Below are positions 40,324-60,666 of a DNA stretch of 64,000 nucleotides, in pieces. Position 1 is the first letter of the stretch; each line of letters starts with the position of its first letter. The notes beneath the pieces are model-generated. The model did not search any database. It was not told the DNA's origin and worked only from the letters and a program-made list of their open reading frames with translations. The DNA comes from Terriglobia bacterium. Its GTDB lineage: Bacteria > Acidobacteriota > Terriglobia > UBA7540. The position numbers were made by a program, and so were the translations under genes. The stretch spans positions 3,164 to 67,163 of the forward strand of contig DATEKC010000148.1 of the NCBI GenBank assembly GCA_035277665.1, read 5' to 3'.

Positions 40324-40366
40324 TAGCAAGGCGGGCCAGCCCCTCTGCTTTTGGATTTCGACCGTC

Positions 40367-41383: not shown

Positions 41384-41479
41384 TCCAAACCTCCATCGGC
41401 CGGTATCTGTTCTGTCTTTGCCCGGCTTCCAAAGGGATTGCGGCGGTGGTTTTGCCTTCTCCGCCCTTCAGTCGGCATG

Positions 41480-42814: not shown

Positions 42815-42989
42815 AGACCCTCCCTCAAGCGGATGCGGACCACCCTGGCGGTGCCCCCCGCCACAGCATCAGGAAGAAGGCGCCGGCGCGCGGGCAGGCT
42901 GGAGGGGGGCATCCATGCGTCGCGCTATGCTCGAGAGGGTGGCGGACCGGCCAGCCACCTTGACGATTCTCCAGTCAAAAATTCGATGC

Positions 42990-44234
42990 TCAGGCTGACC
43001 GGGCAAACCTCCAGCATTCCTGCGCAATCGCCCATTCTTCACGCGCCGCCACCACCACCACCGGAATAGCGGAATCCGCACTGGCAATGTCGCAATCCAC
43101 AGGCGAGCCGCCATTCTTTTGCCGGTCAAGCTTGAGGCCAAGAAAATCCCAGCCGGAGCAGGCAGCGGCGCGCACCTCAGGCGAGTTCTCACCGATGCCG
43201 CCGGTAAAGGCCAGTGCGTCCACGCCGCCGAGCGAAGCGATCATCGCTCCAATGTATTGCCGCAAACGGTGAATGAACGTATCAAAGGCCAGGCCGGCGC
43301 GGGCGTTGCCTTTCTTGATGGCGGAGAGAATTTGCCGCATGTCGTCGGACACTCCCGACACTCCCAGCAGGCCGGATTCGCGGTTCAGGAGCTCCTCCAA
43401 CCGGTCAGCGGAATATTTTTCTTCCCTCAGCAGATGGATGAGAATTCCAGGATCGATGGTGCCGCAGCGGCTGGCCATCATCAATCCTTCGAGAGGCGTA
43501 AAGCCCATGGTCGTATCTACGCCGTGCCCATTCCGCACGGCCGCCAGCGAGCAACCGTGGCCCAGATGGCAGGTGACGATTCGCAATCGTTCAACGTCCT
43601 TGTGCAGGATCCCGGCCGCGCGCCAGGCGCAGTACTGGTGGCTGATGCCGTGAAAGCCATAACGCCGGATGCCGCGTTCGTACCAGGCGTAGGGGCCGGG
43701 ATAGATAAAAGCGTGTTTCGGAAGTGTCTGGTGAAATGCCGTGTCAAACACAGCCACCTGGGGCCGCGATTTGAAAATCCCTTCGGCGATCTCAATGCCG
43801 CTGACCTCGGCGGGATTATGCTCCGGAGCAAACGGCGACAGGCTTTTGATCTCCTGCTTCATTTCTGCCGTCACTCGCGTAGGCTCGGAATATTTCTCGC
43901 CCCCGTGGACGACGCGATGGCCCACCACGTCCACCTCTTCCGGGCCGGCAAGCACGCTCGCCGGGCCTTCCCAGAGGGTCTGCAACAGATAACCGGCGGC
44001 CGCGCTTTCCGAATCAAGGTCGGGCTGCTCGTCCATCACCTGGCGCCCTTCGCGTTTGGCCCGGAGCCGCACATTGCCGAACGGCTCTTCCCATTCCAGG
44101 CGGCCTTCCCACAAAGGAACAGGAGGCGCTTGCGGCAAGGAATCCGCCAGCTCGTAGAGGCAGCTTTTCAGGCTGCTTGAGCCCGCGTTGAGCACCAGGA
44201 CTTTCTTGCGATCTTTGATTGCTTCATGGAGCAA
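42990..44234 (-). CDS. ackA: Acetate kinase
   Basis: VLVLNAGSSSLK, VGHRVVHGG, YGFHGISH and FTGGIGENS motifs. Confidence 0.95.
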   Translation of the reverse strand: MLHEAIKDRKKVLVLNAGSSSLKSCLYELADSLPQAPPVPLWEGRLEWEEPFGNVRLRAKREGRQVMDEQPDLDSESAAAGYLLQTLWEGPASVLAGPEEVDVVGHRVVHGGEKYSEPTRVTAEMKQEIKSLSPFAPEHNPAEVSGIEIAEGIFKSRPQVAVFDTAFHQTLPKHAFIYPGPYAWYERGIRRYGFHGISHQYCAWRAAGILHKDVERLRIVTCHLGHGCSLAAVRNGHGVDTTMGFTPLEGLMMASRCGTIDPGILIHLLREEKYSADRLEELLNRESGLLGVSGVSDDMRQILSAIKKGNARAGLAFDTFIHRLRQYIGAMIASLGGVDALAFTGGIGENSPEVRAAACSGWDFLGLKLDRQKNGGSPVDCDIASADSAIPVVVVAAREEWAIAQECWRFARSA

Positions 44235-44375
44235 TTTTCGCGCCTTCCTTAATAAGGCAGGTAAAGGCCTTGGGCAACCGGTCAGACAGGTGTTGGGTTA
44301 GATACTTACAGGGCAGAATATCATCCAGCACGAGCATTCGCAACCCGAAGCGCCACCGAAGATGCCGGCCCACCC

Positions 44376-45848
44376 CTATTGAGCTGGCCCGGTGGTTCCG
44401 CCCAAACCAAGGTCCGTCAGAATCTTGGGGTTGGCCTCGCCCATCGAAAGCAGGTTGTGGCAAACACTGCAATCCTGCGTAATCATTTTGCTCGTATCGG
44501 AAGCCTCGTGCAGAGTTCCATGGCAGCGGAAGCATCCGGGGAAGTTCATGTGCCCGAGGTTGTTGGGATAAGTTCCCCAGTTGACGTTCATTTTGGGGAA
44601 AACGTTCTCCTGGTAGATGGCAGCAAGCTCCCTGGCGGCCTTGGATACTTCCGCGCGGTGCTGAGAAAGCACCTGTGGGTAATTCTGGCTGTAGTACTGG
44701 ACCAGCCCGGAAGAGATCTTTTCCGCGGCTTCGTTCTGAGTGTTGTACCTGGCCTGCAGAAGCGTCAGACCTTCCTTCTTCACAAACGGAAGCGACGGCG
44801 GAATGTCACCGCGCGCCATGGCTTCGTCCACGGCGTCGCCGGGAAGGTGAAAAATGTGGGTCGGCTGATTGTGGCAATCAATGCAATCCATCACCCGGCC
44901 GCTTGCAGGGTTGACGGTCCTGGGATTCATCTTGTCATTGACAAAGAGCGTTTTCTTGCCCGTCGTGGTGTTGACGTATTCGACCCAGTTCATTTTCTGG
45001 CGGCTCGAATCAGACCCGTACCGGATGGTAATTCCCGGCCCCACGTGAGCGCCGTGGATTCCGCCGCGGCCGTCCCCTCCGCCGATATGCATCAGCAGCA
45101 CCGTCCTGGTCATGGTATTTGCCGCGTCGTCAGCGTAGTGCGGGATGACCACCAGGCGGTTACCTTCAAACCGCGCCGGCCAGTGGCACTGCTCGCAGGT
45201 TTGCCGCGCCGGCCGCAGGTTGGAGACCGGAACGGGAATGGGGCGAGGATAGACATTGAAGATGGTTGCAAAAACCTGATAGGAGCCCGACAACTTGCTG
45301 CGCACAAACCAGGAAGCTCCCGGACCAATATGACATTCCACGCAGGCCACCCGCGCGTGGGGGGAGTGTTCGTAGGCAACATATTGCGGCTGCATGACGG
45401 TGTGGCAGGTCTTCCCGCAAAAGGTCACGCTGTCCATATAATTCACGCCGGAGTAAAGAAGCTGGGCGCCGATGATCAGGTTGACGACGGTTGTCACCCC
45501 CACGAAGAAAAGCAATTTGCGCAGTTCCGCGTTCCTGAAATCCAGGGGAGGAAAATCGGAAGGATAAATGCCGCGGTGCCGCTCACGCCGCGCGCGAAGA
45601 ACAATGCCCAAAGGGATGAGAATGAGCCCGCCGAAAAAGACCGCGGGCAGGCCCATAAAAGTCAGAATCCCGGCATAAGGATTGTCCGTAAAACCGCGCA
45701 AAGTAACAGGCAGCAACAACAACCACAGAACAGCGCCAGTGGTGACAAGCACAACCCCGATCAGGCTGAGGCAATTCCCTGAGAGATACACATACGGTGT
45801 GAGCCATTTCTTCAGTCCCTTCTCTTGATTAACCATCCGTGCTCCCAT
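44376..45848 (-). CDS. Membrane-anchored multiheme cytochrome c, NapC/NirT-related (6 CXXCH; ImcH-like architecture)
   Basis: Two to three N-terminal TM helices, then CGKTCH, CVECH, CEQCH, CIDCH, CFRCH and CSVCH. The start is ATG 45848 or 45836. Confidence 0.8.
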   Translation of the reverse strand: MGARMVNQEKGLKKWLTPYVYLSGNCLSLIGVVLVTTGAVLWLLLLPVTLRGFTDNPYAGILTFMGLPAVFFGGLILIPLGIVLRARRERHRGIYPSDFPPLDFRNAELRKLLFFVGVTTVVNLIIGAQLLYSGVNYMDSVTFCGKTCHTVMQPQYVAYEHSPHARVACVECHIGPGASWFVRSKLSGSYQVFATIFNVYPRPIPVPVSNLRPARQTCEQCHWPARFEGNRLVVIPHYADDAANTMTRTVLLMHIGGGDGRGGIHGAHVGPGITIRYGSDSSRQKMNWVEYVNTTTGKKTLFVNDKMNPRTVNPASGRVMDCIDCHNQPTHIFHLPGDAVDEAMARGDIPPSLPFVKKEGLTLLQARYNTQNEAAEKISSGLVQYYSQNYPQVLSQHRAEVSKAARELAAIYQENVFPKMNVNWGTYPNNLGHMNFPGCFRCHGTLHEASDTSKMITQDCSVCHNLLSMGEANPKILTDLGLGGTTGPAQ

Positions 45849-46087
45849 CCTCCTCAGCCTGCCTGGCTTTGCGCCCCTGTTCGCGCTCGCGCGTCACAGC
45901 ATTTCCCCCGCTTTTTGAATCGCTCCGCTAGATGGTAGGACCGGCCAGCCCTGCTGGTCAACCCACTTGCTACCAGGGGCGGGCCTGGCGGAATGCCCCA
46001 CAGGGCTCCTTGCTGATGAGGCCGCAGGAATCGCTGCATTAGGAGGATGCCCGAGGCATTTTCCTGAAGCCCCACCTCAGGCTATGC

Positions 46088-46915
46088 TCACTGGCGGAAC
46101 GAAAACAGGGTGAGCAGGAGCAGAACGAAACCCGTGGCGATAGCGGCAAAGCCCACCACCTTGCCGGCCACGACAAACCATCTCTGCGGTTGCTCTGCCC
46201 GGAGGCCCTCAAGGCTGCCCTGTGCCAGCAGGCGCTCATACTCCGCGGGGTGCTTTTCCTCCAATTCCTTCCTGGTTTGACGGCCCGTGAAAATCACCGT
46301 GTCCATCGGGAAGCTGCCGGGACGCAGGTGGGTGTTGAAAAAGTGAATCGTGAAAATGAACCAGACGGCAAGCAGGGCCTCGTCTCCATGGAGAAGCAGT
46401 GCAACGTTGAACCACGACCCCGGCAAAAGCCTCGCGACGGGTTGCGCAAACCACATGCTGTAGCCGGAGAACCCGATGATGGCCATGCCCCAGAAGACAG
46501 CCCAGTAATCGAACTTTTCCCAGTAGGCGTAGCGGTCAAATTTGGGTTTCGGCCCCAATCCCAGGAACCAGCGAAAATGGGCCCCCAGTTGCATAATATC
46601 CCTGGGTTGCGGCACAAGAGATTCAGGCCCCCAAAGCATTCCAAACCTTTTCTGGACGAAAACCAGGCGGAGAATGTTTCCCACATGAACAAGAAAGGCC
46701 GCCGTCAACAAAACGCCAAAGGCTTTGTGGAAAAAGAGGATGGCGCCAAGCCCACCCACTCCATGCGCGAAGGCCGAGGCCCACCCGGCAGAGCCGAAGC
46801 GAAGCGTCAGCCCCGTCAGTGCCAGGCCCAGAAACGAGGAGAACAGCATCCCGTGAAGCAATCGCTTGCCAGGCGAAAACCGGTAGTAGTAGCTCTGCTC
46901 CTGTCGATTTTCCAT
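46088..46915 (-). CDS. Membrane b-type cytochrome (FdnI/HydC, Ni/Fe-hydrogenase cyt b family-like)
   Basis: 275 aa, 4-5 TM helices with conserved His in helices (RLLHGM, FFHKAF, LVHVGN, LLHGDE). It lies 15 nt after the 11-heme cytochrome gene. Confidence 0.72.
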   Translation of the reverse strand: MENRQEQSYYYRFSPGKRLLHGMLFSSFLGLALTGLTLRFGSAGWASAFAHGVGGLGAILFFHKAFGVLLTAAFLVHVGNILRLVFVQKRFGMLWGPESLVPQPRDIMQLGAHFRWFLGLGPKPKFDRYAYWEKFDYWAVFWGMAIIGFSGYSMWFAQPVARLLPGSWFNVALLLHGDEALLAVWFIFTIHFFNTHLRPGSFPMDTVIFTGRQTRKELEEKHPAEYERLLAQGSLEGLRAEQPQRWFVVAGKVVGFAAIATGFVLLLLTLFSFRQ

Positions 46916-46930
46916 TTCACCTCTGCGGCG

Positions 46931-48172
46931 TTATTTGGACGCAACTTCTTCGCCACTTCTCCCATTCTTCCGGCGCTCCACCAGGGAGCGGAGAAACCAG
47001 AGAATCGTATGCAAACCGAAAAAGGTAAAGACCGCCAGCATCAGGAAATTCATAAAGCGCGCCGTGTAATAAAGTCCCGGGTAATGCGTGCTGTCGCGAG
47101 GGTTGGCGTGCGGATCGTATGACACAAAGCCCTTCGAGACGTTTTCATGGCATTGCCCGCAGGTCTTTTGCAGGTTTGCCGGGGCAATGGAGGATTCCGG
47201 GTCAGACGCCGGGAGAATCTCGTGGGCGTGGTGGCAATTCCAGCAGCGGGCTGTCACCACGAAGCCCAGCGCCGTCACCTGGCCGTGGAAAGTGTCCTGA
47301 TAAGTGGCCGCCCGGGCGGAGTGGCAACTTCCGCATCTGGATGTCGTCTTTAACTGAAAGGAGGCTGTCCGCACACTCACAATGGAATGTGCCGTATGAC
47401 AATTGGTGCAGACAGGCACCTCGGAATTGCCGGCGCGCAAGCCCTTCCCATGAGCGCCACGGAAATATTTTGCCTCAATCCCGGCATGGCAGGCGCCGCA
47501 CGTCGCCGGAATATTCTTGCGTGACACGGGGCTGTGCGGGTTATTGGGAGCCAGAATTTTGTGCGCCCCATGGCAGCTTGTGCAGGTGGCGGCGACCAGC
47601 AGACCGTCGCGGGTTAGCGCAAATCCATGGATGGAATCGATGTAGAGCGAATAAACATTCGGCAGGCCGTACTCCCTGGCCAGGCGGGGATTTCCATGAC
47701 AGGTGCCGCACGTACGTGGAAGGTTCAGCGCATAGACCGGCGAACGGGAGTCATGCACAGAAACGACGGCGTGCGGGTCCCCGTGGCAGTTCAGGCACGC
47801 CGATGAAGAAGGGTCCTTCATCACCAGGTGATGAACGCTCACTTGAAAATCCGAGTCGGCGCTGGCATGGCAGCCGGCGCATGCAACCGTCTTGACCGGC
47901 AGTTTGTGAGGGAATTCCGTGACGCCGGAGTGGCAAGCCTGGCAGCCCAGCGCGCTGTGGACGGAAGTACTGAATACCTTCGGATCAACGGAAGCGCTGT
48001 GACCTTTAGAATCTTTGAAGCCCGCCTCACCGTGGCAGGCCAGGCAGTCGCTGCTCGATAGAGAGCCGGAACCCTCTGCCCAGCTTACGGATGCGAGCAC
48101 AAGCAATGCAACCGACACCCCGACGCACCGCTGCCAAGCGTTCATGTTGAGCCGTTGTTTCGAGGGAGTCAA
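46931..48172 (-). CDS. Undecaheme c-type cytochrome with a C-terminal membrane anchor
   Basis: Signal peptide, then 11 CXXCH motifs (CLACH, CQACH, CAGCH, CLNCH, CGTCH, CTSCH, CGACH, CTNCH, CGSCH, CWNCH, CGQCH). Terminal TM helix FMNFLMLAVFTFFGLHTILWFL. Confidence 0.9.
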   Translation of the reverse strand: MTPSKQRLNMNAWQRCVGVSVALLVLASVSWAEGSGSLSSSDCLACHGEAGFKDSKGHSASVDPKVFSTSVHSALGCQACHSGVTEFPHKLPVKTVACAGCHASADSDFQVSVHHLVMKDPSSSACLNCHGDPHAVVSVHDSRSPVYALNLPRTCGTCHGNPRLAREYGLPNVYSLYIDSIHGFALTRDGLLVAATCTSCHGAHKILAPNNPHSPVSRKNIPATCGACHAGIEAKYFRGAHGKGLRAGNSEVPVCTNCHTAHSIVSVRTASFQLKTTSRCGSCHSARAATYQDTFHGQVTALGFVVTARCWNCHHAHEILPASDPESSIAPANLQKTCGQCHENVSKGFVSYDPHANPRDSTHYPGLYYTARFMNFLMLAVFTFFGLHTILWFLRSLVERRKNGRSGEEVASK

Positions 48173-48175
48173 AAC

Positions 48176-48457
48176 TCATCCCGGCAATTTGGCGCCTTGC
48201 TGCCACACGAATTGCAGATACAGGGCTCCAATCACCAGGCCATAAACCACAACGATGGCGGTCAGGATCTTCCCCCACCGCTCGATGACTTCCAGTCTAT
48301 GGCTGAGTTTGACCTGGGCGGCGACCTGGGGTGCATCGCCGTCCAGAACATGAAGAGTTTCGTCTTCGTGGCTGGCCATCATATTCCGATAGATGGCCAG
48401 CACCCCCACCACTACCGCAAGAGGGATCCATGTTGCAAGATAGAACGTGAGGTTCAT
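48176..48457 (-). CDS. Small two-TM membrane protein
   Basis: 93 aa with hydrophobic helices at both ends. It is tightly packed between cytochrome genes (3-nt gap downstream). No family recognised. Confidence 0.5.
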   Translation of the reverse strand: MNLTFYLATWIPLAVVVGVLAIYRNMMASHEDETLHVLDGDAPQVAAQVKLSHRLEVIERWGKILTAIVVVYGLVIGALYLQFVWQQGAKLPG

Positions 48458-48514
48458 ACTAACCTCCAGTCGCGATTTCTGCGTGTCTCTGATCCGGGAA
48501 AATTCCCGGAGCGG

Positions 48515-48745
48515 CTACTGGCCTGCCTTGGCCGCAGATTCGCAAGCCTTCAGGTCTTTCTTCTTGGCATAGCATTTGCCTACATCGTTCAGGTCTTTTT
48601 GTCCCATTTTCACGTGGCACGTGGTACACGAAGTTTTTTCCTTCTTCGCAATTTCCATGGTGCCAGATGAAGAAATGGAAGACATCGCAAGGGCCACGCC
48701 CAGGGTGATGCCGAATACTGCAAGCTTCCTGATGGTGCTCATCAT
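48515..48745 (-). CDS. Small exported monoheme c-type cytochrome
   Basis: GGAGG 5 nt before ATG 48745. Signal MMSTIRKLAVFGITLGVALAMS, single CTTCH, Lys-rich. Confidence 0.65.
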   Translation of the reverse strand: MMSTIRKLAVFGITLGVALAMSSISSSGTMEIAKKEKTSCTTCHVKMGQKDLNDVGKCYAKKKDLKACESAAKAGQ

Positions 48746-48797
48746 GATTACCTCCGAACGCATCCGGCAGGTGATGGCGCAAGTTCTGAATCGTTCC

Positions 48798-49151
48798 TTA
48801 CTTCTTCTTGCCCAACTGGTGAATATAGGCTACAAGGTCGTCAATTTCTTCCTTGGAAAGCTGGCTGCCATAGCCCGGCATGATCCCTTTGCCGTTGGCG
48901 ATGAAGCTGTGAAGGTCAGCGTTCGACATGGACTGCACAGCCTTCGAGCGCAGGTCGGGAACCTTCATGTTCTTACCCATGGGACTGTTTCCACTGCCGT
49001 CCTTCGCATGACACATTGCGCACTTGGCATCAAATGTGGGTGCAGCGTCTTTGGCCTGGGCCCTGTAGGCTGGAGTCAGAAGCCATGCGCCGGCCAGCAG
49101 GGCTGAGAAAATTGCAAGTGCTGCAGTGTTAACGACCTTGTTCATTATCAT
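48798..49151 (-). CDS. Class I monoheme cytochrome c (c551/c6/MtoD-like)
   Basis: Signal peptide, CAMCH, distal GIMPGY Met ligand context, and a C-terminal helix EEIDDLVAYIHQL. Confidence 0.85.
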   Translation of the reverse strand: MIMNKVVNTAALAIFSALLAGAWLLTPAYRAQAKDAAPTFDAKCAMCHAKDGSGNSPMGKNMKVPDLRSKAVQSMSNADLHSFIANGKGIMPGYGSQLSKEEIDDLVAYIHQLGKKK

Positions 49152-49238
49152 TTCCTCCTTGTGACATTCCTCTTTGGGAAACCACGCTTCAATAAATCAT
49201 CCTTTGTTTCCGGTCCAATTTCAACCGGCCTGTTACTG

Positions 49239-51254
49239 CTAAAAGTCACGCGTCCAGCGAATCATCAATATGTTGGCGCCAAAATTGTTGGCGCTGATCG
49301 GGTAGAGCTGTTGGGTGTAATAGGTGCGCTGCAGGTCAACAGAAAGCCTGCCGGCCCCGGGGATATTGAAGTAAACCGTGCCCGTGCCGAGCGGCCAGGT
49401 CAACGGCCCGTAAACGGGAGAGATCCCGCCCTCTTCACCTTGACCGGTGGTGCGGACAAAATTCCCGGTAAAGCTGATTCCGAAGTACTTCACGGGTTCA
49501 GCAGCTAGCCCGCCCTGCCAGACGCGGTTGAGGGCCTGGTCGCGAAGCGGGAACGGCGTCCCGGCGACAGGCACGCCGCGCTGGTAGGCGATGATGCCGG
49601 TAGCCAGTTCATTATCGTAGGTGAAACCACCAAACACCGAGTATTTCGGGCTAAAGGTGTACGTCAGCATCGTGGCGTTGGACTGGACTTTGCCCTCAAA
49701 CTGCGTCTCCAACAGCCTCTGACTCACCGTATAGATCTCATCGCTCAGAGTGAACTTGCTCGTCAGGTGGGCGTTCGCAACCACGCGCCCGGTGGTATTG
49801 GTGTGCGCGGTCAGCGCGGTGTAGGAAGCGCCATTATTGTAGGTGTGGATCTCGCCCCGCACATCGAACCACTTCGAGGGACGATAGAAGGCGCTGAGAG
49901 CGGGCGACACGGCGCGGTTCCGGAGCGTGCGTGCGGGATCGGCCTCACCGTCCTCCAGGACCTCGGCATCGGACTTGTACATCGTGACCCCGGGGCTGAT
50001 TACCAGGTTGTTGAGGGGCGTGAAGATCATTTTGAGGCTGCCCTCGTGAAGGCCGAATTTCCAGTTATTGGCATTCTCCTCGCTCGAAGCTACCGGAAGA
50101 GCAGCAACTCCTCCCGTGATTGCCGTGAATGTGCTGGTGAAGGTGCCGGTGGCCTCAGTTGTAAACCTCGAATAGCGGTAATCCAGGTCGATGTCCCACC
50201 AGGGCTTGATATGAAACGTTAAACCCTGCTCCGCAATATTGTTCGGTTCGCTGACTTGTACCCGCCCGCTTTGAGACACGGTGTAGGTTGTTGGCGGATT
50301 GACGCCGCTGAATGACTGGTCAAGGGTGGCAGGTCCACTGTAACGGTAAAAGAGGTAACTGCCGCGGACTTCCACCCAGGAATTTGGATTTCCGGTGTAG
50401 GAAAATTCACTGACCGGCGTCGTCAGCCTCCGGAAATCGGTCCATGACGCCGCCGTGAGGGGCGCGCCGGCCGTTCCAGCTATGGACAGCTCGCCCGGAG
50501 AAGTCGGGTTCAGTGTGATATTGTCGTCAAAAGTCTGGTAACCAACGTTGTAGTGGAAATTCCAATTGTTCCAGGTGTAGTCGATGCCTCCCGCAATGCG
50601 GTTGGCATTATCAAATGTGGGTGCGTATAAAGAATAGGCGTTGGCACGAGCATAGCCGCCCCAGCTTCCCGGCGAGTCCAGAAAATCCGGAGAGAACGTC
50701 GTGAAGGTCGGACCGGTGAACGATGTCTTGTAATACTGGAAGTGGAATCGCAGGTTGTTGGTGGCATGCACCGTAAAATCAACGGACCCGATTTTGCGCA
50801 CCGTGGACCAATCGTGATTATTGGTGAGCCCGGGCACGTTGAGCGTCGGAAGAATGACTCCGTCGTTCTGGTTCCAGTAGAAGTATGACTGGCGCCAGCT
50901 GGCGCGGAAATCGTAGACCTTGGATTTGGACAGAGTAAGCTGGGCGCCGGGATAAGGGTCGCCGCCCATGCCACTCATGGTGAGCGAAAAATCGTTGGCA
51001 AAAGCATTAGGATCGTTATTGTGTCCGAACAGGCTGAAGTCCATGAGCCGGGGTCCGCTCTTCAGGTCAAAAAGCTCCTCAAACATCGGCTCATAACCTT
51101 TCACATCTGTGAAGCGGTACCCCACGCTGGCGGAGCCCTGGACGCCGAAACCTCCCCACTGGAGTTGAGGTTCGCTCTGGTCCTGCGCCCTGAGCACAGG
51201 CAAACTTACCAGCAAAGCTAACACCAGGAAGAACAAGCTACGTCTGATTTTCAC
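49239..51254 (-). CDS. Large outer-membrane beta-barrel, MtrB/PioB-like (cytochrome-associated porin)
   Basis: GTG 51254 with GGAGG 6-7 nt upstream. Signal VKIRRSLFFLVLALLVSLPVLRAQ. About 670 aa of alternating-polarity strands rich in Y/F/T/N/G. C-terminal ...IRWTRDF ends in an aromatic residue. It lies 10 nt after the MtrA-like gene. Confidence 0.7.
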   Translation of the reverse strand: MKIRRSLFFLVLALLVSLPVLRAQDQSEPQLQWGGFGVQGSASVGYRFTDVKGYEPMFEELFDLKSGPRLMDFSLFGHNNDPNAFANDFSLTMSGMGGDPYPGAQLTLSKSKVYDFRASWRQSYFYWNQNDGVILPTLNVPGLTNNHDWSTVRKIGSVDFTVHATNNLRFHFQYYKTSFTGPTFTTFSPDFLDSPGSWGGYARANAYSLYAPTFDNANRIAGGIDYTWNNWNFHYNVGYQTFDDNITLNPTSPGELSIAGTAGAPLTAASWTDFRRLTTPVSEFSYTGNPNSWVEVRGSYLFYRYSGPATLDQSFSGVNPPTTYTVSQSGRVQVSEPNNIAEQGLTFHIKPWWDIDLDYRYSRFTTEATGTFTSTFTAITGGVAALPVASSEENANNWKFGLHEGSLKMIFTPLNNLVISPGVTMYKSDAEVLEDGEADPARTLRNRAVSPALSAFYRPSKWFDVRGEIHTYNNGASYTALTAHTNTTGRVVANAHLTSKFTLSDEIYTVSQRLLETQFEGKVQSNATMLTYTFSPKYSVFGGFTYDNELATGIIAYQRGVPVAGTPFPLRDQALNRVWQGGLAAEPVKYFGISFTGNFVRTTGQGEEGGISPVYGPLTWPLGTGTVYFNIPGAGRLSVDLQRTYYTQQLYPISANNFGANILMIRWTRDF

Positions 51255-51264
51255 GCGAAACCTC

Positions 51265-52662
51265 CTATCGCAGCAGGAACTCATCAAAGTTTGAGCCATG
51301 GATCGCCACATGGCAGCGTGTGCAGTCTCCGGAAGTCTGGAACCCGTGCCGGCCGTGCGGCACGTTGGCTTGACCGTGAAAACCACCATCGGCTCCATGT
51401 AGATCAACGTGGCATTGCAGGCACAGCAGCCGTTGCTCGCGCCGCTTCAGCAAGAAATTGTTCACGCTGCCGTGCGGAGTGTGGCAGGAGGTGCAGCCCT
51501 CCACTCTCACGACTGCGTGCTCAAAAACAAACGGACCGCGCTTTTCCACGTGGCATTTCACGCAACTCTCCCAGTTGGTCTTGTTCAACTGGAAGTGGTT
51601 CATGGTGCCGTGCGGGTTGTGGCAATCCGTGCACTTCATGAAGCCTTCGCCCACCCGGTGGTGTTCCGGCAGCGCGAATTGCGCCTGCACCGTCTGGTGG
51701 CAGCCGAAGCAGAGCTCGGGCTGCGGCTTCTTCAACAACCCATCCGTCAGCCAGGCGTTCTCCTCTTTCAGCCTGGGAACGGAGAAGAACGCGGCCTGGG
51801 CCGGCTGCAGCCTGGGCTTCCCGGCATCCGCCACTTCAACCGGATGGATGCTGTGGCAGTCAATGCAACCAACGCCCGCCGTGGCGTGTACTGAATGCGG
51901 GAAGGAATCCTGCGGTGTTCCGGTCTGGTGGCATTGCATGCACCGCTCCGAGTTTTCTTTGGGGCTGCCGCCGAACTTGTAGATCAGCTTCATGCCGGCT
52001 TCCATCTTTGTCGGGTCACCCGCAGCTTCCTGCTCGGCGTGCGCATGGGCGGCGCCCGGCCCGTGGCAGACTTCGCACCCGGTCACATGCCTGGGGCCTG
52101 AGGTGGCGGGGGCTTGCGCCGATTGGTTCTGGTCCTGCCCCTTCAGCGTCATCAGGTAATCAACCAGTTCGTTAAGACTCTTCGTGGGAGTGTCGGGAGG
52201 AAGCGTGGGCATGATGGTTCCAGCCCGCCGCTTGAGCATGCGGTCCATCAAATCCTCGTGGGTCCTGCGGGCACCCACATCGCCCAGGGCCGGGCCGGCC
52301 GTGCCGCCTTTGCCGCCTATCTGGTGGCAGCCTGCGCACATCATGTCGATGTAAAGCTTCCGGCCTGCCGCGACGGAGGGAGACTCCGCCGCTCCGGAGG
52401 AGGCTGGAGCAGCCTCGACTTCTCCGCCCTGCTCACCGTGAGGGGACTTGAAAAACTGACGGGCCTCCGCACGGTGGCAACCCGCGCAAACCTGCGGCCC
52501 CACATAATCATTGGGGTTGGTCTCCACAGGCGCCTTCCAGGCAACCGATGGCCCCTTGGCAGGGGCCGGCTGCCTCTGAGCGTAGAGAAATGCCGTTGGC
52601 AGGAATCCAGCCAGGCAGATCAACAACGCAGCGATCTTGATGGAACTCAGCAGTCGCTTCAT
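51265..52662 (-). CDS. Periplasmic multiheme cytochrome c, MtrA/DmsE-family-like (11 CXXCH including one class-I module)
   Basis: ATG 52662 with RBS GAGGGGA. Signal MKRLLSSIKIAALLICLAGFLPTAFLYA. Heme motifs CAGCH (twice), CEVCH, CMQCH, CIDCH, CFGCH, CTDCH, CVKCH, CTSCH, CLQCH and CTRCH. DmsE/MtrA-like contexts RGPFVFEH, GCTSCHTPHGS and CHVAIHGSN. Confidence 0.85.
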   Translation of the reverse strand: MKRLLSSIKIAALLICLAGFLPTAFLYAQRQPAPAKGPSVAWKAPVETNPNDYVGPQVCAGCHRAEARQFFKSPHGEQGGEVEAAPASSGAAESPSVAAGRKLYIDMMCAGCHQIGGKGGTAGPALGDVGARRTHEDLMDRMLKRRAGTIMPTLPPDTPTKSLNELVDYLMTLKGQDQNQSAQAPATSGPRHVTGCEVCHGPGAAHAHAEQEAAGDPTKMEAGMKLIYKFGGSPKENSERCMQCHQTGTPQDSFPHSVHATAGVGCIDCHSIHPVEVADAGKPRLQPAQAAFFSVPRLKEENAWLTDGLLKKPQPELCFGCHQTVQAQFALPEHHRVGEGFMKCTDCHNPHGTMNHFQLNKTNWESCVKCHVEKRGPFVFEHAVVRVEGCTSCHTPHGSVNNFLLKRREQRLLCLQCHVDLHGADGGFHGQANVPHGRHGFQTSGDCTRCHVAIHGSNFDEFLLR

Positions 52663-53286
52663 GTCGCTCTCCCCTCTTTCACATTGGTTGACCATTGAAC
52701 TCCTCTTCTCAGACAAACTAAGTCATCAACAACAGGTAACCCTTGTCTGGCTCATCGGCCCAATGCCCCGACGCCTTCAGCGGAAACGCCGGCGCCGGCG
52801 ACGCCCCAGCCGGGTCCCCGGCCGGAGCTATGCGCCTGGCTTGCGCGCGATTAAGGTTTGAACCTGAACTTTTGTGATTTGGCTCAGTTTGCGACCGTCC
52901 CCGACGGCTCATCGCTTCACCGGCAGTCTGAGAAGGAGCAGTTTGAACCAGACTCAAGGAAAAGCCGGATATATGAACCGACAGGAGGCTCGATTTGTGG
53001 CGAACGTCGCATACCGGATTCATGGTAGTGAAGTAATGAAAATATTTTATGTCGGTAATATTTTTGATTGCTCTCCTCGGCCTGAGAGAAGTTTTTCTGC
53101 AGGCAAGAGACATTTTCCTGGGGCTGGCATGGCATTCGGCTTTCGGAATTGTTCTCAATTCCATCTCAACGATCCCTATCGGGCTCGCCATGGTTCTTCG
53201 CCATATGAGCGGTCCCGACCTTACCTTCAAGTAACCATTTCTATCAGTCGGCCGACCACCCGGCAGTGAGCTTGCTCACGGTCGCG

Positions 53287-53302
53287 TGTGACCGAAATCA
53301 CA
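53287..53302. promoter_or_regulatory. Perfect CRP-type palindrome TGTGA-N6-TCACA
   Basis: TGTGAccgaaaTCACA read directly. It lies in the 1.1-kb non-coding region upstream of the cytochrome operon. Confidence 0.4.
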
Positions 53303-53812
53303 TAAAGGAGCTTGCGGCTGTTTCGGCCTTTGTTTTCATTCAATTCTGAAAGAATTACAGGTCGCTGGGTGGGTGAAAATTTTGAGGTTGTTTCGGGTCC
53401 CTATGTGACCTGGCGGCAATGGAAATAAAGGCTGCGGACACAGAGATTCAGGGAGAAGATTTCCCCGGCATCTGGGCTGATTTCCCTGTTGAGTTCAAGG
53501 AACAGTCAGCTTGGGACTGGCCCGAGGCCACGCCGCACAAAGCGAAGCTTTTCGATGAAAATTGGACGGACCTTCAGGTCGCCAGACGCACTGGTCCGAG
53601 GCCGAGTCCGGCCCAGGGGGTAATTTTCATTTTTGGCGGTTTTTTCTGCAGGCGGGTTGAAGGCAGGCAAGCCTGTTAGCCACCGGGCTTTATTCGCCCT
53701 GCTTGGAGTGCGGCAACGCCAGCACTGCCATGGAATCGAACAAGGCGGCAGATCTGCTGCCGCACTCCAGGAGCTTCGCCGTAAGCCGCATCAAAATGCC
53801 GGCCGCACAATA

Positions 53813-54181
53813 CTAGCCCGGCAGATGCGACTCCATCCGGCTGATAGCCTGCCGCAGCCAGGCCTTTACGGCTTCCTGCATCTGATTTTGATTTCCCTTT
53901 TCTTCCAGTCTCTCGACGGTTTGTCCGGATGAATCCAGTGGAATATGGTGGCAGGGCATCGGCGACACTCGACTGTCCTCGGGAACAAATTCCATCAGAG
54001 GGCACTCGCCGCAGGGGTGAACTCGATAGGGGTATCCATAATTGAGACAGGTGAGAGAGTCTGAAAACATCGTTGCCGCCGCACCCGATTGTAGTTTGTC
54101 CGGGGCCCCATATCCGCCGCGTTCAATAAACTCCAGCTCAGACTTCAAGATTTCCAGAATATCCTGCTGATCTTTGGGCAT
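53813..54181 (-). CDS. Hypothetical Cys/His-containing small protein
   Basis: AGGGGGA RBS 7 nt before ATG 54181. 122 aa with C-x13-C-x2-C ... C-H-H. No family recognised. Confidence 0.5.
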   Translation of the reverse strand: MPKDQQDILEILKSELEFIERGGYGAPDKLQSGAAATMFSDSLTCLNYGYPYRVHPCGECPLMEFVPEDSRVSPMPCHHIPLDSSGQTVERLEEKGNQNQMQEAVKAWLRQAISRMESHLPG

Positions 54182-54520
54182 AGCGTTTTCCCCCTTCGAA
54201 GTACTCCATTCGACATGGGCCACGCCACACGTGTCCTTCTGAGTGCGAAGCCTAAGACTCTTTAAGCGCTCAATCCGTGATGCCCGTCACACTGAGATGT
54301 GATTTTCGTAATGCACTGCGGGATTCGCACCATGGTTGTTTCCGCGCGAGACGGGCCAAAGATACACCCTGCCCTTCGCTTCAATCGACATCTCCTTCTC
54401 AGTCGCTGAAACTGCTTTAGTGGTCGCGCTCTGCTTCGGATTTCCGCCCAATTCTGGTCAGCGCTTCTGGCAAACTCGCGCCCGCCCCGGCCCACCTTAG
54501 CGAGCTTCCTGGTTCCGTCC

Positions 54521-54958
54521 TCACGCCGCGAGGGGCTCAAGAGCGGAGGTCGAAAAACAATTCCGGACAACTTCTGCAATTTCCTCACGAGGGTCCCATT
54601 TGCGCACAATGGCGGCCGCTCCCAGGTTCATAAAGTATTTTCTCATTTCAGGCATCAGTGAACTTTCCGTCAGGATGATCAGCGGCCGGTTCGCCACGGC
54701 GCGGATCTCGCCGAAGATTTCTTCGTGCTCAATGTCGCGAAGGTAGTCGTCCAGAAGGACGAGGTCAAACGCATTTGACCGCAATAAAGCCAGGCCTTCC
54801 TGGCCGCTCCAGGCTGTCATGGTTTCGTAGCCTTCGCTTTCAAGCAGGCCTTCCAGGGAAAGCAGCACGCGATCGTCGTCATCGATCACCAGAATCCGTT
54901 TTTTGGCAGTTTCTTCCCGCACCATGTCCTCCGGGCTGCAGTGCCTATGCTTCCGCAC
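54521..54958 (-). CDS. Single-domain response regulator (CheY-like)
   Basis: RILVIDDDD, FDLVLLDDYL and PLIILTES motifs. The start is GTG 54958 or ATG 54925. Confidence 0.8.
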   Translation of the reverse strand: MRKHRHCSPEDMVREETAKKRILVIDDDDRVLLSLEGLLESEGYETMTAWSGQEGLALLRSNAFDLVLLDDYLRDIEHEEIFGEIRAVANRPLIILTESSLMPEMRKYFMNLGAAAIVRKWDPREEIAEVVRNCFSTSALEPLAA

Positions 54959-55114
54959 TTCAAGGATGCGCCGCGGCCGGCGCTATCGCGGTGACTCAGG
55001 TCACGCCCTGCTGTGACAGGAGCAGGCAGCGCGATTCGCGGGGATGCGCTGCTGGAATAAATGAGGACCAGAGGATATTCCCTCTGGTCCCCGAATTTTC
55101 TGAACGGAGATGAA

Positions 55115-57445
55115 CTAGCTGATGGTGAGTGGCACGTTTACCGTGTTGGTGATTTTTCCGGTGGAGTCCCTTCCGGTGATGGTCAGCGTGTAGGCCCCCG
55201 TTCTGGCATTACGGTTGACCTTGACTGTCAATCTGGAATTTATCGAACCGCTCCCGGTGAATGTTACCGAAGTAGGGCTCAAGCTCACGCTGGTGCGCGA
55301 AGGCACTCCGCTAACGCTCAGCGAGATCGTACCAGCAAAGTTTGAGGACGTAACCGTAATGGTGCTTGTTCCTGTGGAGTTGCGGGGAACGTTCAATGAG
55401 CTCGGGCTGGCGCTGAGGGTAATGCTCCCCGTAGGCGCTGGAGCATTGACCACCAAAGTGACGCTGGTGGAGAAATTCAGGCTGCCGCTCGATCCTGTCA
55501 CCGTGATGTTATAGGTTCCCGCCGCCGTGTTCGACGCGGTGGCCAGCACCAGGTTGAATGAGGTAGTTTGACTCACGCTCACCGAAGTCGGGCTGGAAAG
55601 AGTAACGCCTGCCGGCTGGCCGGAAATGGCGATGTTAACCGTCCCGCTAAACCCGTTGTTCGGCGTGATGGTGAGGTGATTGAAAGTGGCAGGATTTCCC
55701 GCCGTTACCGTCTGCGCCGAGGAACTGTTCGTCAAAGTGAAACTCGGCCCCGCCGGGCTTCCGCATCCCGGAAAAACGAAGGAAGCGATCTGCGTCGACC
55801 AATTGAAACTCCCGTTGTAGGGCAAATACTCATTGGTATACCAGAAGGTGCAATCGTCAGCCGGGTCGACAGACATGGAACTGTAATCGCCCCATCGGGA
55901 AAGGCCGCTGGTCTGCGAAAACGCTCCCTGCAGGATGGGCGCCTCGGATTCCAGCGTGCCGACGGGATCACTCGCCAGCCTGCCCGTGTAATAAATCGAG
56001 GGCGCCACGGATGAACTGGACTCGCTGTACCCCACCGCGATATCGCCGTTTTTGTCCATGGCGATGCTGGGCATCCAGCGATAATTAGAATCCGGCGCAA
56101 AGGTCCCCTGCTGATAGACGGAGGGGGAAGAACCGGGGCTGCGAATTTCATACCAGCGGATGCCGGAAGTTCCGTTCCCCGGGTCCACCGAGTGCGAGAT
56201 CACCAGCGACTCGTAGCTGCCAAAATTCCGGTAAGCCAGGCGGTACATCAGGCGGTCGGCCAGGGAATCAAGCGTGTTGTTCGTATTCGGCTGGGGAATG
56301 CAGGTCCCGCCGCCACAGGCCTCGTTAAACGCACTGACGGCAATCAGGGTCGGGCCGGTAAACGTGGAATTGGAAGGGTTGGCCCAATCGACGTGATATT
56401 GGAACAAGGCCAGCTTGGTGTTATCCGGAGCATAGATGCCGACATAATAGGCGGGTGAACCGGCGGGCGGACCTTGTGTGGTGCCGGTAACGCCCGGAAC
56501 ATTCCCATCCAGGTCGGAAGAGAGCCAGCTATCAATTTCTGTATTTGAGGGAGGGATGGTGGCGCACTGCATGGTTGCGGCCTGGCCCGCCAGCATGCTT
56601 GCCCGGTCCATGACGCAAGCCTGCGGGCCTGCCCACTGGCTTCCATTCGTAAAGCTGTTATAGGAAATGTAATAGCCGTCAGACCAGACGGAGAGCTTTG
56701 GGTAATCCGGGAAATTGTGGCTGTTATTGGGAACATTAAACTGATATCGGTTCCAGGTAATCCCGCTGCCGGTCCAGTTGGAGGTGGTGGAAACCGCGAC
56801 GCAAAGCGAGTAGGGAGAAGAGAAAACCGGCTGCATCACCACCCATCGGCCGGCTTGTTTATCGTACTCAGCGATGGGATCCCCGCTGTTCGTGGTCTGG
56901 CAGGAGCCGCCGAACCCGCTCCAGATGCTGTTGCCGGCCGCCGGGCCAAACACCAGTTTTCCGCTCGATTTATCGTAGACGGCAAATCTGACGTTGACCC
57001 ACTGCATGTATTGCGTTGCGCCTGCCGCGCCGTTCGTGTCGGGCGGCGCGTAGCCATTGGCGCCAACTCCGCTAAAGTTCGCTCCGGCGGTTGCCGCCAC
57101 CGTAGGACCGGTGGAGATTTGAAGGGCAGGGTCCTGCAAACTTGTAACAATGCCCGGCGCATGTGTGCGGCGCAGAACAATTTCCTTGTTGGCGGCAGCC
57201 TGCCCCCCGGGATAAGGAAGCACATCGTCCGGCCCTAAAGCGTGCTGATCATGCTTCGATTCATGAATGACAACAGTGCTGGATTTTCCTTGGGCGCTCA
57301 CTGGCGCTGCGCCTGGTTCCCAAAGTGCTCCCGCAACCAGGACGGCCAAACCCAACATCATGAAACCTGCAGTTTTCTTGCTCAAAGCTGAATCCTCCAT
57401 CAATGACATCTGCCCCATTGCTTTCTTCCGGACTTGAGAAGACAC
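55115..57445 (-). CDS. Large secreted protein: beta-propeller-like N-terminal region plus C-terminal Ser/Thr-rich Ig-like repeats
   Basis: Signal/anchor FMMLGLAVLVAGALW. Motifs PPDTNGAAGATQYMQWVN, GDPIAEYDKQAGRWV and RWGDYSSMSVDP. The last ~230 aa are tandem beta-sandwich-like segments (TVTAGNPATF..., YNITVTGSSG..., YTLTITGRDS...). Confidence 0.7.
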   Translation of the reverse strand: MSSQVRKKAMGQMSLMEDSALSKKTAGFMMLGLAVLVAGALWEPGAAPVSAQGKSSTVVIHESKHDQHALGPDDVLPYPGGQAAANKEIVLRRTHAPGIVTSLQDPALQISTGPTVAATAGANFSGVGANGYAPPDTNGAAGATQYMQWVNVRFAVYDKSSGKLVFGPAAGNSIWSGFGGSCQTTNSGDPIAEYDKQAGRWVVMQPVFSSPYSLCVAVSTTSNWTGSGITWNRYQFNVPNNSHNFPDYPKLSVWSDGYYISYNSFTNGSQWAGPQACVMDRASMLAGQAATMQCATIPPSNTEIDSWLSSDLDGNVPGVTGTTQGPPAGSPAYYVGIYAPDNTKLALFQYHVDWANPSNSTFTGPTLIAVSAFNEACGGGTCIPQPNTNNTLDSLADRLMYRLAYRNFGSYESLVISHSVDPGNGTSGIRWYEIRSPGSSPSVYQQGTFAPDSNYRWMPSIAMDKNGDIAVGYSESSSSVAPSIYYTGRLASDPVGTLESEAPILQGAFSQTSGLSRWGDYSSMSVDPADDCTFWYTNEYLPYNGSFNWSTQIASFVFPGCGSPAGPSFTLTNSSSAQTVTAGNPATFNHLTITPNNGFSGTVNIAISGQPAGVTLSSPTSVSVSQTTSFNLVLATASNTAAGTYNITVTGSSGSLNFSTSVTLVVNAPAPTGSITLSASPSSLNVPRNSTGTSTITVTSSNFAGTISLSVSGVPSRTSVSLSPTSVTFTGSGSINSRLTVKVNRNARTGAYTLTITGRDSTGKITNTVNVPLTIS

Positions 57446-57708
57446 ACCTTCCCCTCCAGAAGAGCACTTAGTTCGTTTTCGTCATGGAAACCACCTTTCA
57501 GTGGCTCAAGCAGGTTTGGTCCGAACGGGCACCCCAAGGGAACCCTGCTGGAAGGGGATTCTAAATTGTTTGGTACCAAAATGGCAAGTGGCATTTTAGT
57601 TAATAGCAACGGCACAAATTTTGGCCGAAACGCCCTTTCGCCCCACCCTGCCCGGAAGCGAACACTTCTTCTCATGAGGCAGACTATGCATGCGACATTA
57701 ACTCTTTG

Positions 57709-57733
57709 CCAATCAGGTAATCACCCTGATTGG
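57709..57733. promoter_or_regulatory. Perfect 9-bp inverted repeat CCAATCAGG-N7-CCTGATTGG
   Basis: Read directly. It lies in the 560-bp divergent intergenic region between the 776-aa secreted-protein gene and the flp-like gene. Confidence 0.3.
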
Positions 57734-57784
57734 TTGCAGGCAATTCGTGGAGTCAAATTGCTGGTTTCTCCGAATTGTGACTTG

Positions 57785-57798
57785 AAGCGCATGCGCTT
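57785..57798. promoter_or_regulatory. Perfect 14-bp palindrome AAGCGCATGCGCTT
   Basis: Read directly, in the same divergent intergenic region. Confidence 0.3.
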
Positions 57799-58005
57799 AT
57801 CCTTAGGGTGTCTCAAGCGGAAGTAAGGCATTCCCAGCCTGGGACGGATGTGGGCATCAGGTGGATTGGGAAATATGACGATGAGAATGGTGGGGTCTAA
57901 GGAACGTACGGTCCAGGAAAGCTCGCTCATCCTTGATGGCCACTCAGAATTTTCCCGACTCCTGCAAAGCAAACGTTGAGCGAACCTCGTTGAAGGAGGA
58001 GCAGG

Positions 58006-58281
58006 ATGACAAAGTACCTCAAAAAGTTATGGTCAGGACAGGAAGGCCAGACCCTCCCGGAATTTGCATTGCTCTTGCTTCTGGTTTGCCTGACTGTGGT
58101 TTCGTCCATGATTGGCGTAGCCATTAAAGTGGACGGCATGTATGGCAACGCTTCCACGCGCGTGGTTGTCGCCAGCAACCCGACCCTGACGGGCAGCGGG
58201 GCGAACGGCTATGCTGGCGTGCCTGCCACCGAAACACTGATTAAGTTGAAGGACACAACAAAACAGAAGCCGGCCAAATAG
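58006..58281 (+). CDS. Flp/Fap-family type IVb pilin-like protein
   Basis: GGAGGAG RBS. MTKYLKKLWSGQEG-QTLPEFALLLLLVCLTVV fits the Flp prepilin motif G/xxxxE[YF] followed by a hydrophobic helix. Confidence 0.65.
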   Translation: MTKYLKKLWSGQEGQTLPEFALLLLLVCLTVVSSMIGVAIKVDGMYGNASTRVVVASNPTLTGSGANGYAGVPATETLIKLKDTTKQKPAK

Positions 58282-58449
58282 CACGGTCACCCGCAGGTGG
58301 GACGGTCTCCCCCACCCGCCACCTGTCCCCTGAAAACACCCGGCGCTCCGTTTCGAGCCATCCCTCCGTTTTTAGAGAGACTTACGTCCGGCAGTTAGCG
58401 GGGCAGGAACGGATTTCAGCATCCTGCAGCGCCTGCCCTGCTAGAATTT

Positions 58450-59781: not shown

Positions 59782-60414
59782 TCAGTCGAAATCGCCCCTG
59801 TTGAATTCGCGGTCGAAAACTTCCAGGAGCGCCGCGCGGTTGATCACTTCCAGCAGCGGCACGCGGCCGATGACGGGCGCGTGGCCGTACTGCTCGATGG
59901 CGCGCTCATTGTCCGCGTTGGGCGTCCCCACCACCACGACTCCCTTCACCTCGAGCCCGGCGCCCTGCAGCGCCCGCAGGGTCAGCACCGAGTGGTTGAT
60001 GGTCCCCAGCGCGCTGCGCGCCACCAAAACCACGGGCAGCGCCAGCCGGCGCATCAGGTCCAGCACAAACTCTGTTCCGTTCACCGGCACCATCACGCCG
60101 CCGGCGCCCTCAACAATCAGCGGCCCCGGCAACTTGCCCGCCGGGCGGCGAATCGTTCCAAGATCGATCGTCGCTCCGGCCCGCTCGGCAGCCAGATGCG
60201 GCGAAACCGGCGGATCGAATACGTAACTTTCCGGGAGCGTCCGCTCCGCGCCGAGCTCCGCCAGTTCCATCACCGTGCGCCGGTCGCTGTCTTCCGTGGC
60301 GCCCGTCTGGATGGGCTTCCAGTAAACGCCCTCCAGCGCCGCGCAGAGCAGCGCCGAAACCAGGGTTTTGCCGACGCCCGTGTCCGTGCCGGTCACAAAA
60401 AGATCGCTAGCCAT
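59782..60414 (-). CDS. bioD: Dethiobiotin synthase
   Basis: P-loop FVTGTDTGVGKT, YWKPIQTG and EGAGG motifs. Confidence 0.9.
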   Translation of the reverse strand: MASDLFVTGTDTGVGKTLVSALLCAALEGVYWKPIQTGATEDSDRRTVMELAELGAERTLPESYVFDPPVSPHLAAERAGATIDLGTIRRPAGKLPGPLIVEGAGGVMVPVNGTEFVLDLMRRLALPVVLVARSALGTINHSVLTLRALQGAGLEVKGVVVVGTPNADNERAIEQYGHAPVIGRVPLLEVINRAALLEVFDREFNRGDFD

Positions 60415-60666
60415 AACGTCTCACCGATTAAACGCGCCCGTGCCCCCGCAGCCTTCATCTTTCTTTGATTTGCACCCGCTTTGGGCGTATAAAGGAAGCA
60501 GCTTGCCGATTCAAAAGCGTAGCAGAAATCCCGGAGGAAAGGCCAGCGCAGAGTCGGGTGGAGGTTGTCGCCCACATCTCAGTGTTCTGTATCAGACGAA
60601 AAGCCGCACCGATTTGTGGGTCTGAACGTTGGTCCGTCCGCACGGCACGAAAGTGGGGGAAGCACA

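Follow-up and report, generated by a model that had tools for sequence, protein, structure and literature searches.

Within a 64,000-nucleotide stretch of a Terriglobia bacterium contig (DATEKC010000148.1, assembly GCA_035277665.1), called the window here and used for all coordinates, positions 49239 to 52662 encode an exported multiheme cytochrome of the MtrA/DmsE family and, directly downstream on the same (minus) strand, an outer-membrane beta-barrel. The pair probably forms a two-component trans-outer-membrane conduit of the MtrAB/MtoAB/PioAB type, without a dedicated MtrC, that is linked to the quinone pool and most likely carries electrons outward. The system is a divergent variant of known Mtr/Mto machinery, not a new kind, and the general finding is not new. 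It differs by an 11th heme, held in a class-I domain that interrupts the MtrA-like wire, by a barrel that standard family models do not recognize, and by a conserved linkage to ImcH-like and CbcL-like genes without a surface cytochrome.

In the mechanism we propose, a 26-strand barrel would sit in the outer membrane and sheath an MtrA-like chain of ten bis-His hemes. The C-terminal heme would lie near the cell surface, exposed to soluble or colloidal substrates, and the N-terminal end would be periplasmic. At that end, the inserted domain, with a putative His/Met class-I heme, could serve as a built-in docking or relay site, an entry or exit point to soluble monoheme cytochromes. A split CbcL-like module and an ImcH-like cytochrome would couple the conduit to the quinone pool. 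Flow would most likely be outward, to extracellular Fe(III) or humic-type acceptors respired when oxygen is low, along a wire that is probably reversible. The assignment of the cytochrome to its family, the strand number and fold class of the barrel, the coupled and syntenic genes and the lack of an MtrC nearby are shown by the analysis; the threading, the heme ligation, the topology of the inserted domain and the direction of flow are what we infer in this scheme.

The multiheme cytochrome and its inserted domain

The cytochrome gene (51265..52662, minus strand) lies in an open reading frame (ORF) at 51265..52716 (minus strand) and ends with a TAG stop at 51267-51265. Translation from the ATG at 52662 (MKRLLSS...), the same start Met that several homologues use in the alignment, gives a protein of 465 amino acids (aa) with a Sec signal peptide. 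Its 11 CXXCH motifs, at residues 59, 109, 196, 241, 266, 318, 344, 367, 390, 414, and 447, comprise 10 in MtrA order and 1 extra. The first-pass annotation of this DNA had described an exported 465-aa cytochrome with 11 CXXCH motifs and three sequence contexts (RGPFVFEH, GCTSCHTPHGS, and CHVAIHGSN); the ORF list and motif count bear this out, and all three strings were found in the protein.

The hidden Markov model TIGR03508 (DmsE-family decaheme) scored 209.4 bits against the cytochrome, above its curated cutoff of 192.2. The next-best NCBIfam model, that of the Geobacter sulfurreducens GSU2203 (OmcK) decaheme family (NF041028), scored nearly as high at 197 bits, below its own cutoff of 325. 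Among PDB sequences, the cytochrome matched 6r2q_A (E 3.5e-32), which is MtrA of Shewanella baltica. The strong stretch of this match aligned residues 309-459 with MtrA residues 174-325 and covered six heme motifs (hemes 5-10), and a weaker stretch aligned residues 188-274 with MtrA residues 92-168 and covered three more (hemes 2-4). The CXXCH motifs at residue 59 and at residues 196-447 correspond to MtrA hemes 1 and 2-10, respectively. Taken with the family-level score, 11 heme motifs in 465 aa are far beyond chance, and these matches identify the protein as a true member of the DmsE/MtrA family. The assignment proposed earlier was thus upheld, both by the TIGR03508 cutoff and by the solved MtrA structure.

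Conserved His residues outside the heme motifs were found at H75, 206, 259, 273, 334/335, 351, 382, 397, 436, and 455 (39-member alignment); these 10 or 11 residues would be sufficient for bis-His ligation of ten hemes. A model of the cytochrome alone (AlphaFold2 [AF2], 39 sequences) was poor, with a predicted local distance difference test score (pLDDT) of 53 that fell below 40 in the C-terminal half, and was used only for a structural match to MtrA and for the class-I likeness of the inserted domain. With this model, MtrA was the sole Foldseek match at E ≤ 1e-3.

The extra heme motif lies in an inserted class-I cytochrome c domain (52093..52437, minus strand; residues ~76-190, ~115 aa) between heme 1 and heme 2. 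PF00034 and PF13442 matched residues 97-170, and the domain carries CAGCH at residue 109 and the segment GTIMPTLPP, a putative Met ligand. Motifs of the GT(I/V)MP type usually supply the Met ligand, and GT(I/V)MP is conserved in the insertion of the 11-heme relatives. Compared with 10-heme relatives (alignment A3, 39 family members), the inserted segment is a clean indel near the N terminus: “...PHA” is joined directly to “GCExCHGPG” in the 10-heme proteins, and the 11-heme relatives bear the ~115-aa insertion at that point. One of the 10-heme relatives (L018) scored 209.7 bits with TIGR03508. The inserted part of the model resembled SorU and cytochrome c6 (Foldseek; TM-score normalized to the target [TMt], 0.62-0.71).

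By its motifs and domain matches, the cytochrome is an MtrA-type decaheme with one monoheme domain inserted after heme 1. Heme ligation and redox potentials are predicted from the motifs. The N-terminal end of MtrA, with its hemes, reportedly faces the periplasm in the solved MtrCAB complex (the 2020 work of Edwards et al.); since the insertion is near the N terminus, the extra domain would be periplasmic. The candidate explanation that the inserted domain is a duplicate of the 117-aa cytochrome encoded downstream was rejected, as BLASTP found motif-level similarity only (E 0.004).

The outer-membrane barrel and its pairing with the cytochrome

A 10-nucleotide (nt) spacer (51255..51264, minus strand; “gaggtttcgc”) separates the two genes. 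The TAG stop of the cytochrome gene and the “gagg” that follows it form a GGAGG ribosome-binding site before the GTG of the barrel gene at 51254, and the pair is translationally coupled. The barrel gene (49239..51254, minus strand) encodes 671 aa, with a hydrophobic signal peptide at the N terminus (...LPVLRA before QDQ), as in the cytochrome, a C-terminal Phe (...IRWTRDF), and zero cysteines. An exported protein of ~670 aa with a C-terminal Phe had been described ten nucleotides downstream of the cytochrome, and its size is now confirmed at 671 aa.

The AF2 model of the barrel (30 homologues) was of moderate confidence (pLDDT 68; predicted template modeling score [pTM], 0.56) and had 26 beta-strands by DSSP, within the ~26-28 foreseen by the first-pass annotation. 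A barrel with room for a decaheme cytochrome would be expected to have 26 strands and ~650-700 aa, and the modeled protein agrees with both figures. Its top Foldseek match was MtrB (6r2q_B; TM-score normalized to the query [TMq], 0.61; TMt, 0.63), with 12% identity in the structural alignment. The next matches were 22-strand TonB-dependent receptors (TM-score, 0.31-0.43). A reading of the protein as a TonB-dependent receptor was rejected on these low TM-scores and because neither a plug nor a TonB-dependent receptor domain was found in the barrel.

Searched exhaustively with a profile, 1.84 billion representatives yielded 949 relatives of the barrel. Weak matches to PF11854 (MtrB_PioB) were found in 7 of the 30 aligned family members (best, 7.3e-7). 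Three full-length distant relatives linked to the family by profile (P0270, P0380, and P0382) scored 31-42 bits with PF11854, above its gathering score of 23. Distant relatives also scored 27-43 bits with the model of the Geobacter GSU2204 family (NF041027), as good as or better than with TIGR03509 and far below the NF041027 cutoff of 350. In our reading, the barrel may be remotely linked to the MtrB/PioB superfamily through such intermediates. The model and the gene context point to an MtrB-like 26-strand barrel; family membership by sequence could not be demonstrated. Of the earlier MtrB/PioB call, the fold and the placement have held and the sequence-level membership has not.

The pairing recurs elsewhere. 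A scan of species-representative genomes yielded 22 related loci, all from Terriglobia or Acidobacteriota metagenome-assembled genomes from soils and peat (one labeled Candidatus Acidoferrum), and the order cytochrome, barrel, and ~117-aa class-I monoheme cytochrome c was found in 22/22. The family is large, with at least 596 clusters of barrels (90% identity) and upwards of 2,000 of cytochromes, nearly all labeled “hypothetical” or “CXXCH cytochrome.”

Two related sequences have interrupted barrel genes. A public contig (ENA ERZ27257062:k141_2006188) is 99.991% identical to window positions 60771..39239 (2 mismatches in 21,533 nt). At window position 50795 (barrel codon 154), it has a TAA stop (L023 position 9977) where the window has AAA (Lys154), and the record splits the barrel into two gene calls (153 and 510 aa). 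The window ORF is intact, and Lys154 sits in a V-R-K motif conserved in the family; the TAA is either a genuine null allele within the population or an error of assembly. At another locus (L021:10001-11978), the barrel gene is frameshifted around residue 310; since the assembly, to judge by its name (MFD05684.bin), stems from the Microflora Danica long-read project, the frameshift is probably an assembly indel rather than the mark of a pseudogene.

Partner genes, direction of electron flow, and rival explanations

The cytochrome-barrel pair heads a larger cluster (52662..44376, minus strand). Neither this cluster nor the class-I nature of the 11th heme had been noticed in the first-pass annotation. 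Next after the barrel gene is that of an exported 117-aa class-I monoheme cytochrome c (48798..49151, minus strand) with a CAMCH motif and the segment GIMPGYG, a putative Met ligand. This protein matched PF13442 at 4e-15 and is cytochrome c6-like, its PDB matches being cytochromes c552, c6, and CcoP; an exact-sequence look-up found it not on record. Two small genes of no known family follow. The first (48515..48763, minus strand), conserved in the near clade, encodes an exported, Lys-rich protein of 82 aa with a single CXXCH motif (CTTCH) and two further Cys. The product of the second (48176..48457, minus strand), 93 aa long, has two hydrophobic helices; the gene stops 3 nt before that of a second 11-heme cytochrome. 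At least 12 related loci keep both small genes in the same syntenic position, between the monoheme cytochrome and the CbcL-like module.

The second 11-heme cytochrome (46931..48172, minus strand; 413 aa, 11 CXXCH, C-terminal membrane helix) is followed by a 275-aa membrane b-type cytochrome of the Ni_hydr_CYTB/FdnI-like type (46088..46915, minus strand; PF01292 and TIGR01583). In five related loci (L005, L008, L009, L011, and L014), a 9-heme multiheme region and a cytochrome b are fused in one protein of ~570-600 aa. This is the architecture of CbcL, and we therefore read the 413-aa and 275-aa genes as a split CbcL-like c/b module. The last gene of the cluster (44376..45848, minus strand) encodes a 490-aa protein with three N-terminal transmembrane (TM) helices (residues 27-45, 66-84, and 112-130) in a NapC/NirT/NrfH-type N-terminal region, a CX3CH at residue 144 adjoining TM3, and five CXXCH. 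It has the published features of the inner-membrane cytochrome ImcH (~490-520 aa, three N-terminal TM helices, CX3CH by TM3, and 5-9 CXXCH; PMC6295460), to which it is likened by description and architecture. The CbcL-like and ImcH-like assignments are thus architectural. Genes for both are conserved beside the conduit in ~12 loci. A 2018 survey found no mtrAB or mtoAB adjacent to imcH (PMC6295460), so the adjacency seen here is new relative to that survey.

No surface cytochrome was found near the pair. Only six ORFs in the 64-kb window contain any CXXCH, and none is large and MtrC/OmcA-like. Beyond the cluster genes described above, no ORF with three or more CXXCH, and no adjacent decaheme surface lipoprotein of the MtrC/OmcA type (TIGR03507), was found in the window or within 10 kb in the 22 loci. 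TIGR03507 and PF22113 gave solely sub-threshold fragments, in the ImcH-like protein, and the cluster cytochromes have no lipobox and no MtrC-type domains at significant scores. The absence of a large MtrC/OmcA-type lipoprotein beside the pair, as first noted, therefore extends to the related loci. The hedge attached to it, that the module resembles the Mto/Pio version as much as Mtr, was apt, since every locus has a gene for a class-I monoheme cytochrome after the barrel. A DmsEF-type conduit to an extracellular molybdoenzyme was considered and rejected, as there was no molybdopterin oxidoreductase among the larger ORFs scanned with Pfam and NCBIfam at 38-63 kb.

The direction of electron flow cannot be read from sequence, and we consider outward or reversible flow somewhat more likely than inward flow. 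Outward flow is favored by the ImcH-like gene, because all homologues of ImcH found so far are from Fe(III) reducers (PMC6295460), by the fermentative and microaerobic neighbor genes (acetate kinase, cytochrome bd, and Crp/Fnr), and by the ecology of related Terriglobia/Acidobacteriia, inferred to be Fe(III) reducers (PMC7980381). The neighbors in question are those for acetate kinase and subunits I and II of a cytochrome bd oxidase, directly downstream of the cluster on the same strand (40367-44234, minus strand), and for a Crp/Fnr-family regulator nearby (38376-39131, plus strand). Their order recurs in the public contig ERZ27257062:k141_2006188.

Several points weigh against the outward, two-component conduit. 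For the barrel, no match was found in Pfam or NCBIfam, PF11854 and TIGR03509 included, even at E ≤ 10, and the TIGR03509 search that had been set as a check on the barrel thus came back empty, an outcome that the first-pass annotation had itself named as counting against its reading. The barrel-family profiles A1 and A4 and the relative P0380 likewise found nothing among PDB sequences at E ≤ 10, MtrB included. The relatives that pass PF11854 scored 18-28 bits with TIGR03509, against a cutoff of 240, and the barrel model has moderate confidence only. For the direction, His/Met class-I hemes are normally high-potential, and two hemes of this putative type (in the inserted domain and in the 117-aa cytochrome) fit uptake better than menaquinol-driven export. 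The gene content of a distant clade (L013 and L015-L020) is Mto-like, with a 10-heme cytochrome, the barrel, the monoheme cytochrome, and a ~213-aa NapC/NirT-type tetraheme cytochrome. Finally, the gene of an MtrC-like partner could lie beyond the window.

The strongest rival, which we regard as possible yet the less probable course, is that the same conduit works mainly inward, like MtoAB/PioAB: Fe(II) or reduced humics would be oxidized at the surface, and electrons would pass through the decaheme and the class-I heme, reach the 117-aa cytochrome c, and from there enter an oxidase or the quinone pool. The lack of an MtrC gene in the window and near the 22 related loci would fit this direction, as would the putative Met ligands in GTIMPTLPP and GIMPGYG, which imply high-potential hemes at the periplasmic end and hence downhill flow inward. 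An N-terminal CXXC is reportedly present in MtrB of metal-reducing Gammaproteobacteria and missing from MtoB and PioB; the barrel, which contains no Cys at all, lacks this motif too. The class-I monoheme gene after the barrel in every locus matches the MtoD component of the Mto cluster (PMC4412085), and L013 and L015-L020 have the gene content of the Sideroxydans mto cluster. Several points speak for export instead. An ImcH-like gene is conserved beside the conduit and its known homologues occur in Fe(III) reducers, as related Terriglobia are also inferred to be; cytochrome bd, the sole oxidase nearby, takes electrons from quinol and not from cytochrome c; and the Fe(III)/Fe(II) couple is high-potential in acidic soils, which would make His/Met hemes compatible with outward flow.

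We think it unlikely that the pair is the AB core of an MtrCAB-like system, with the gene of the surface cytochrome located elsewhere in the genome and its product docking on the barrel in trans. Full mtrCAB clusters are described in other Acidobacteriia, in the Bryobacteraceae (PMC8805035; see also preprint 10.64898/2026.05.27.727921), soil Acidobacteriia contribute TIGR03507 (OmcA/MtrC) matches (PMC7980381), and the visible part of this genome is 64 kb. In known systems, however, mtrC adjoins mtrAB (PMC8805035); an MtrC-type multiheme gene lay within 10 kb in 0/22 related loci, and no cytochrome of the cluster has a lipobox or significant MtrC-type domains. It is very improbable that some unrelated large porin or transporter simply lies beside a periplasmic decaheme cytochrome here, with no sheathed wire: this reading would account for the lack of a sequence-level family match and sits with a model of moderate confidence, but against it stand the 10-nt coupling to an MtrA-family gene and their 22/22 synteny, the count of 26 strands, the best structural match to MtrB, well apart from the 22-strand receptors, the absence of plug or TonB-box domains from the barrel, and the relatives that pass PF11854.

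The two-component, probably outward conduit that we prefer shares with Shewanella MtrA-MtrB (6R2Q) the motif order of the decaheme core, including the EKRGP..EH and C..CH.PHGS contexts, and a barrel gene directly downstream, with a model of 26 strands for which MtrB is the top structural match. It differs in having no adjacent MtrC, 11 hemes by way of the class-I domain between hemes 1 and 2, a barrel without Cys or detectable sequence similarity to MtrB, and ImcH-like and CbcL-like partners in place of CymA. With MtoAB-MtoD-CymA of Sideroxydans lithotrophicus ES-1 and PioAB of Rhodopseudomonas palustris, it shares a decaheme and a barrel without a surface cytochrome (MtoA and PioA were compared by gene content and description). 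As in the Mto cluster, a class-I monoheme cytochrome belongs to the cluster, here in all loci; its gene follows the barrel, whereas that of MtoD precedes mtoA, and its heme site is putatively His/Met, compared with His/His in MtoD (PMC4412085). A CymA-like NapC/NirT-type tetraheme cytochrome is found in the distant members (L013 and L015-L020) only, the window having the ImcH-like and CbcL-like genes instead. Unlike PioAB, the cluster has no PioC-type HiPIP.

Among the Geobacter systems, the OmcK/GSU2204 pair is approached by the OmcK-model score of the cytochrome and by the GSU2204-model scores of the distant barrel relatives. The window barrel itself had no NF041027 match, and GSU2204 proteins contain CXXCH or selenocysteine, whereas the barrel has no Cys. 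The Geobacter pair is functionally uncharacterized, being known only as up-regulated with iron oxides. The Pcc (OmbB-OmaB-OmcB) and Ext systems, which combine a porin with an 8-heme periplasmic cytochrome and a multiheme lipoprotein on the outer surface, differ in that the window has a 10+1-heme MtrA-type cytochrome and the cluster here has no multiheme lipoprotein cytochrome. From the Acidobacteriia come the Group 5 mtrCAB clusters of the Bryobacteraceae (Baker et al. 2022; PMC8805035) and the “EET2” Mtr-like conduits of the Bryobacterales (Fiorito et al. 2026, preprint 10.64898/2026.05.27.727921), the latter seeded on extracellular cytochromes. Both were defined by an extracellular MtrC-type cytochrome and contain one, of which there is none here, and they are set apart from the present system by their descriptions.

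Surrounding region and meaning for the Terriglobia

The ~1.1 kb upstream of the cytochrome gene (52663-53812) has AT-richer patches and no convincing gene, and the public record also calls none; there may be a small plus-strand ORF at 53419..53679. An Rfam scan of this ~1.1-kb stretch matched no family. A promoter and terminator scan of 42500-55200 gave counts no higher than in shuffled sequence, and operon borders were not definable in this way. Farther upstream, a 136-aa Cys/His-containing protein with no family match (53813-54223, minus strand) and a stand-alone response-regulator receiver protein (54521-54958, minus strand; PF00072) are encoded; roughly half of the related loci also have these two genes upstream of the conduit, and their products may regulate the cluster. 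They are preceded by the gene of a 776-aa secreted protein (55115-57445, minus strand) with no heme, no Pfam match, a weak match to an “invert_tail” C-terminal domain, and Ser/Thr-rich repeat-like C-terminal segments. A strong hairpin terminator (55092..55063) follows this gene, which several loci also keep upstream of the conduit. At the other end of the window, an RND efflux pair unrelated to the conduit (1306-6151, plus strand) consists of a CusB/HlyD-type membrane-fusion protein, whose C-terminal domain is YtkA-like, followed by an AcrB-family pump.

Terriglobia, which rank with the most abundant bacteria of soils, are thought to drive the redox cycling of iron and humics. What is known of their electron-transfer machinery comes only from annotation-level matches, including MtrA- and MtrB-type matches already reported in soil Acidobacteriia (PMC7980381). 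Standard models catch the cytochrome described here and not the barrel, and pipelines that require MtrA plus MtrB/PioB matches (TIGRFAM- or FeGenie-style rules) would therefore miss the conduit.

A broader proposal, which we put forward tentatively and regard as doubtful, is that the pair represents a large, unannotated family of two-component conduits specific to soil and peat Terriglobia. Such a family would combine a barrel invisible to MtrB/PioB models with an 11-heme MtrA bearing a high-potential His/Met heme, hard-wired to Geobacter-type ImcH-like and CbcL-like modules as a “Shewanella”/“Geobacter” hybrid, and the extra heme might tune it for high-potential donors or acceptors in acidic soils, e.g., for the oxidation of Fe(II) or the redox cycling of humics. 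Two features, the inserted class-I heme and the neighboring ImcH-like and CbcL-like genes, offer testable handles on how such a conduit connects to the periplasm and in which direction its electrons flow.

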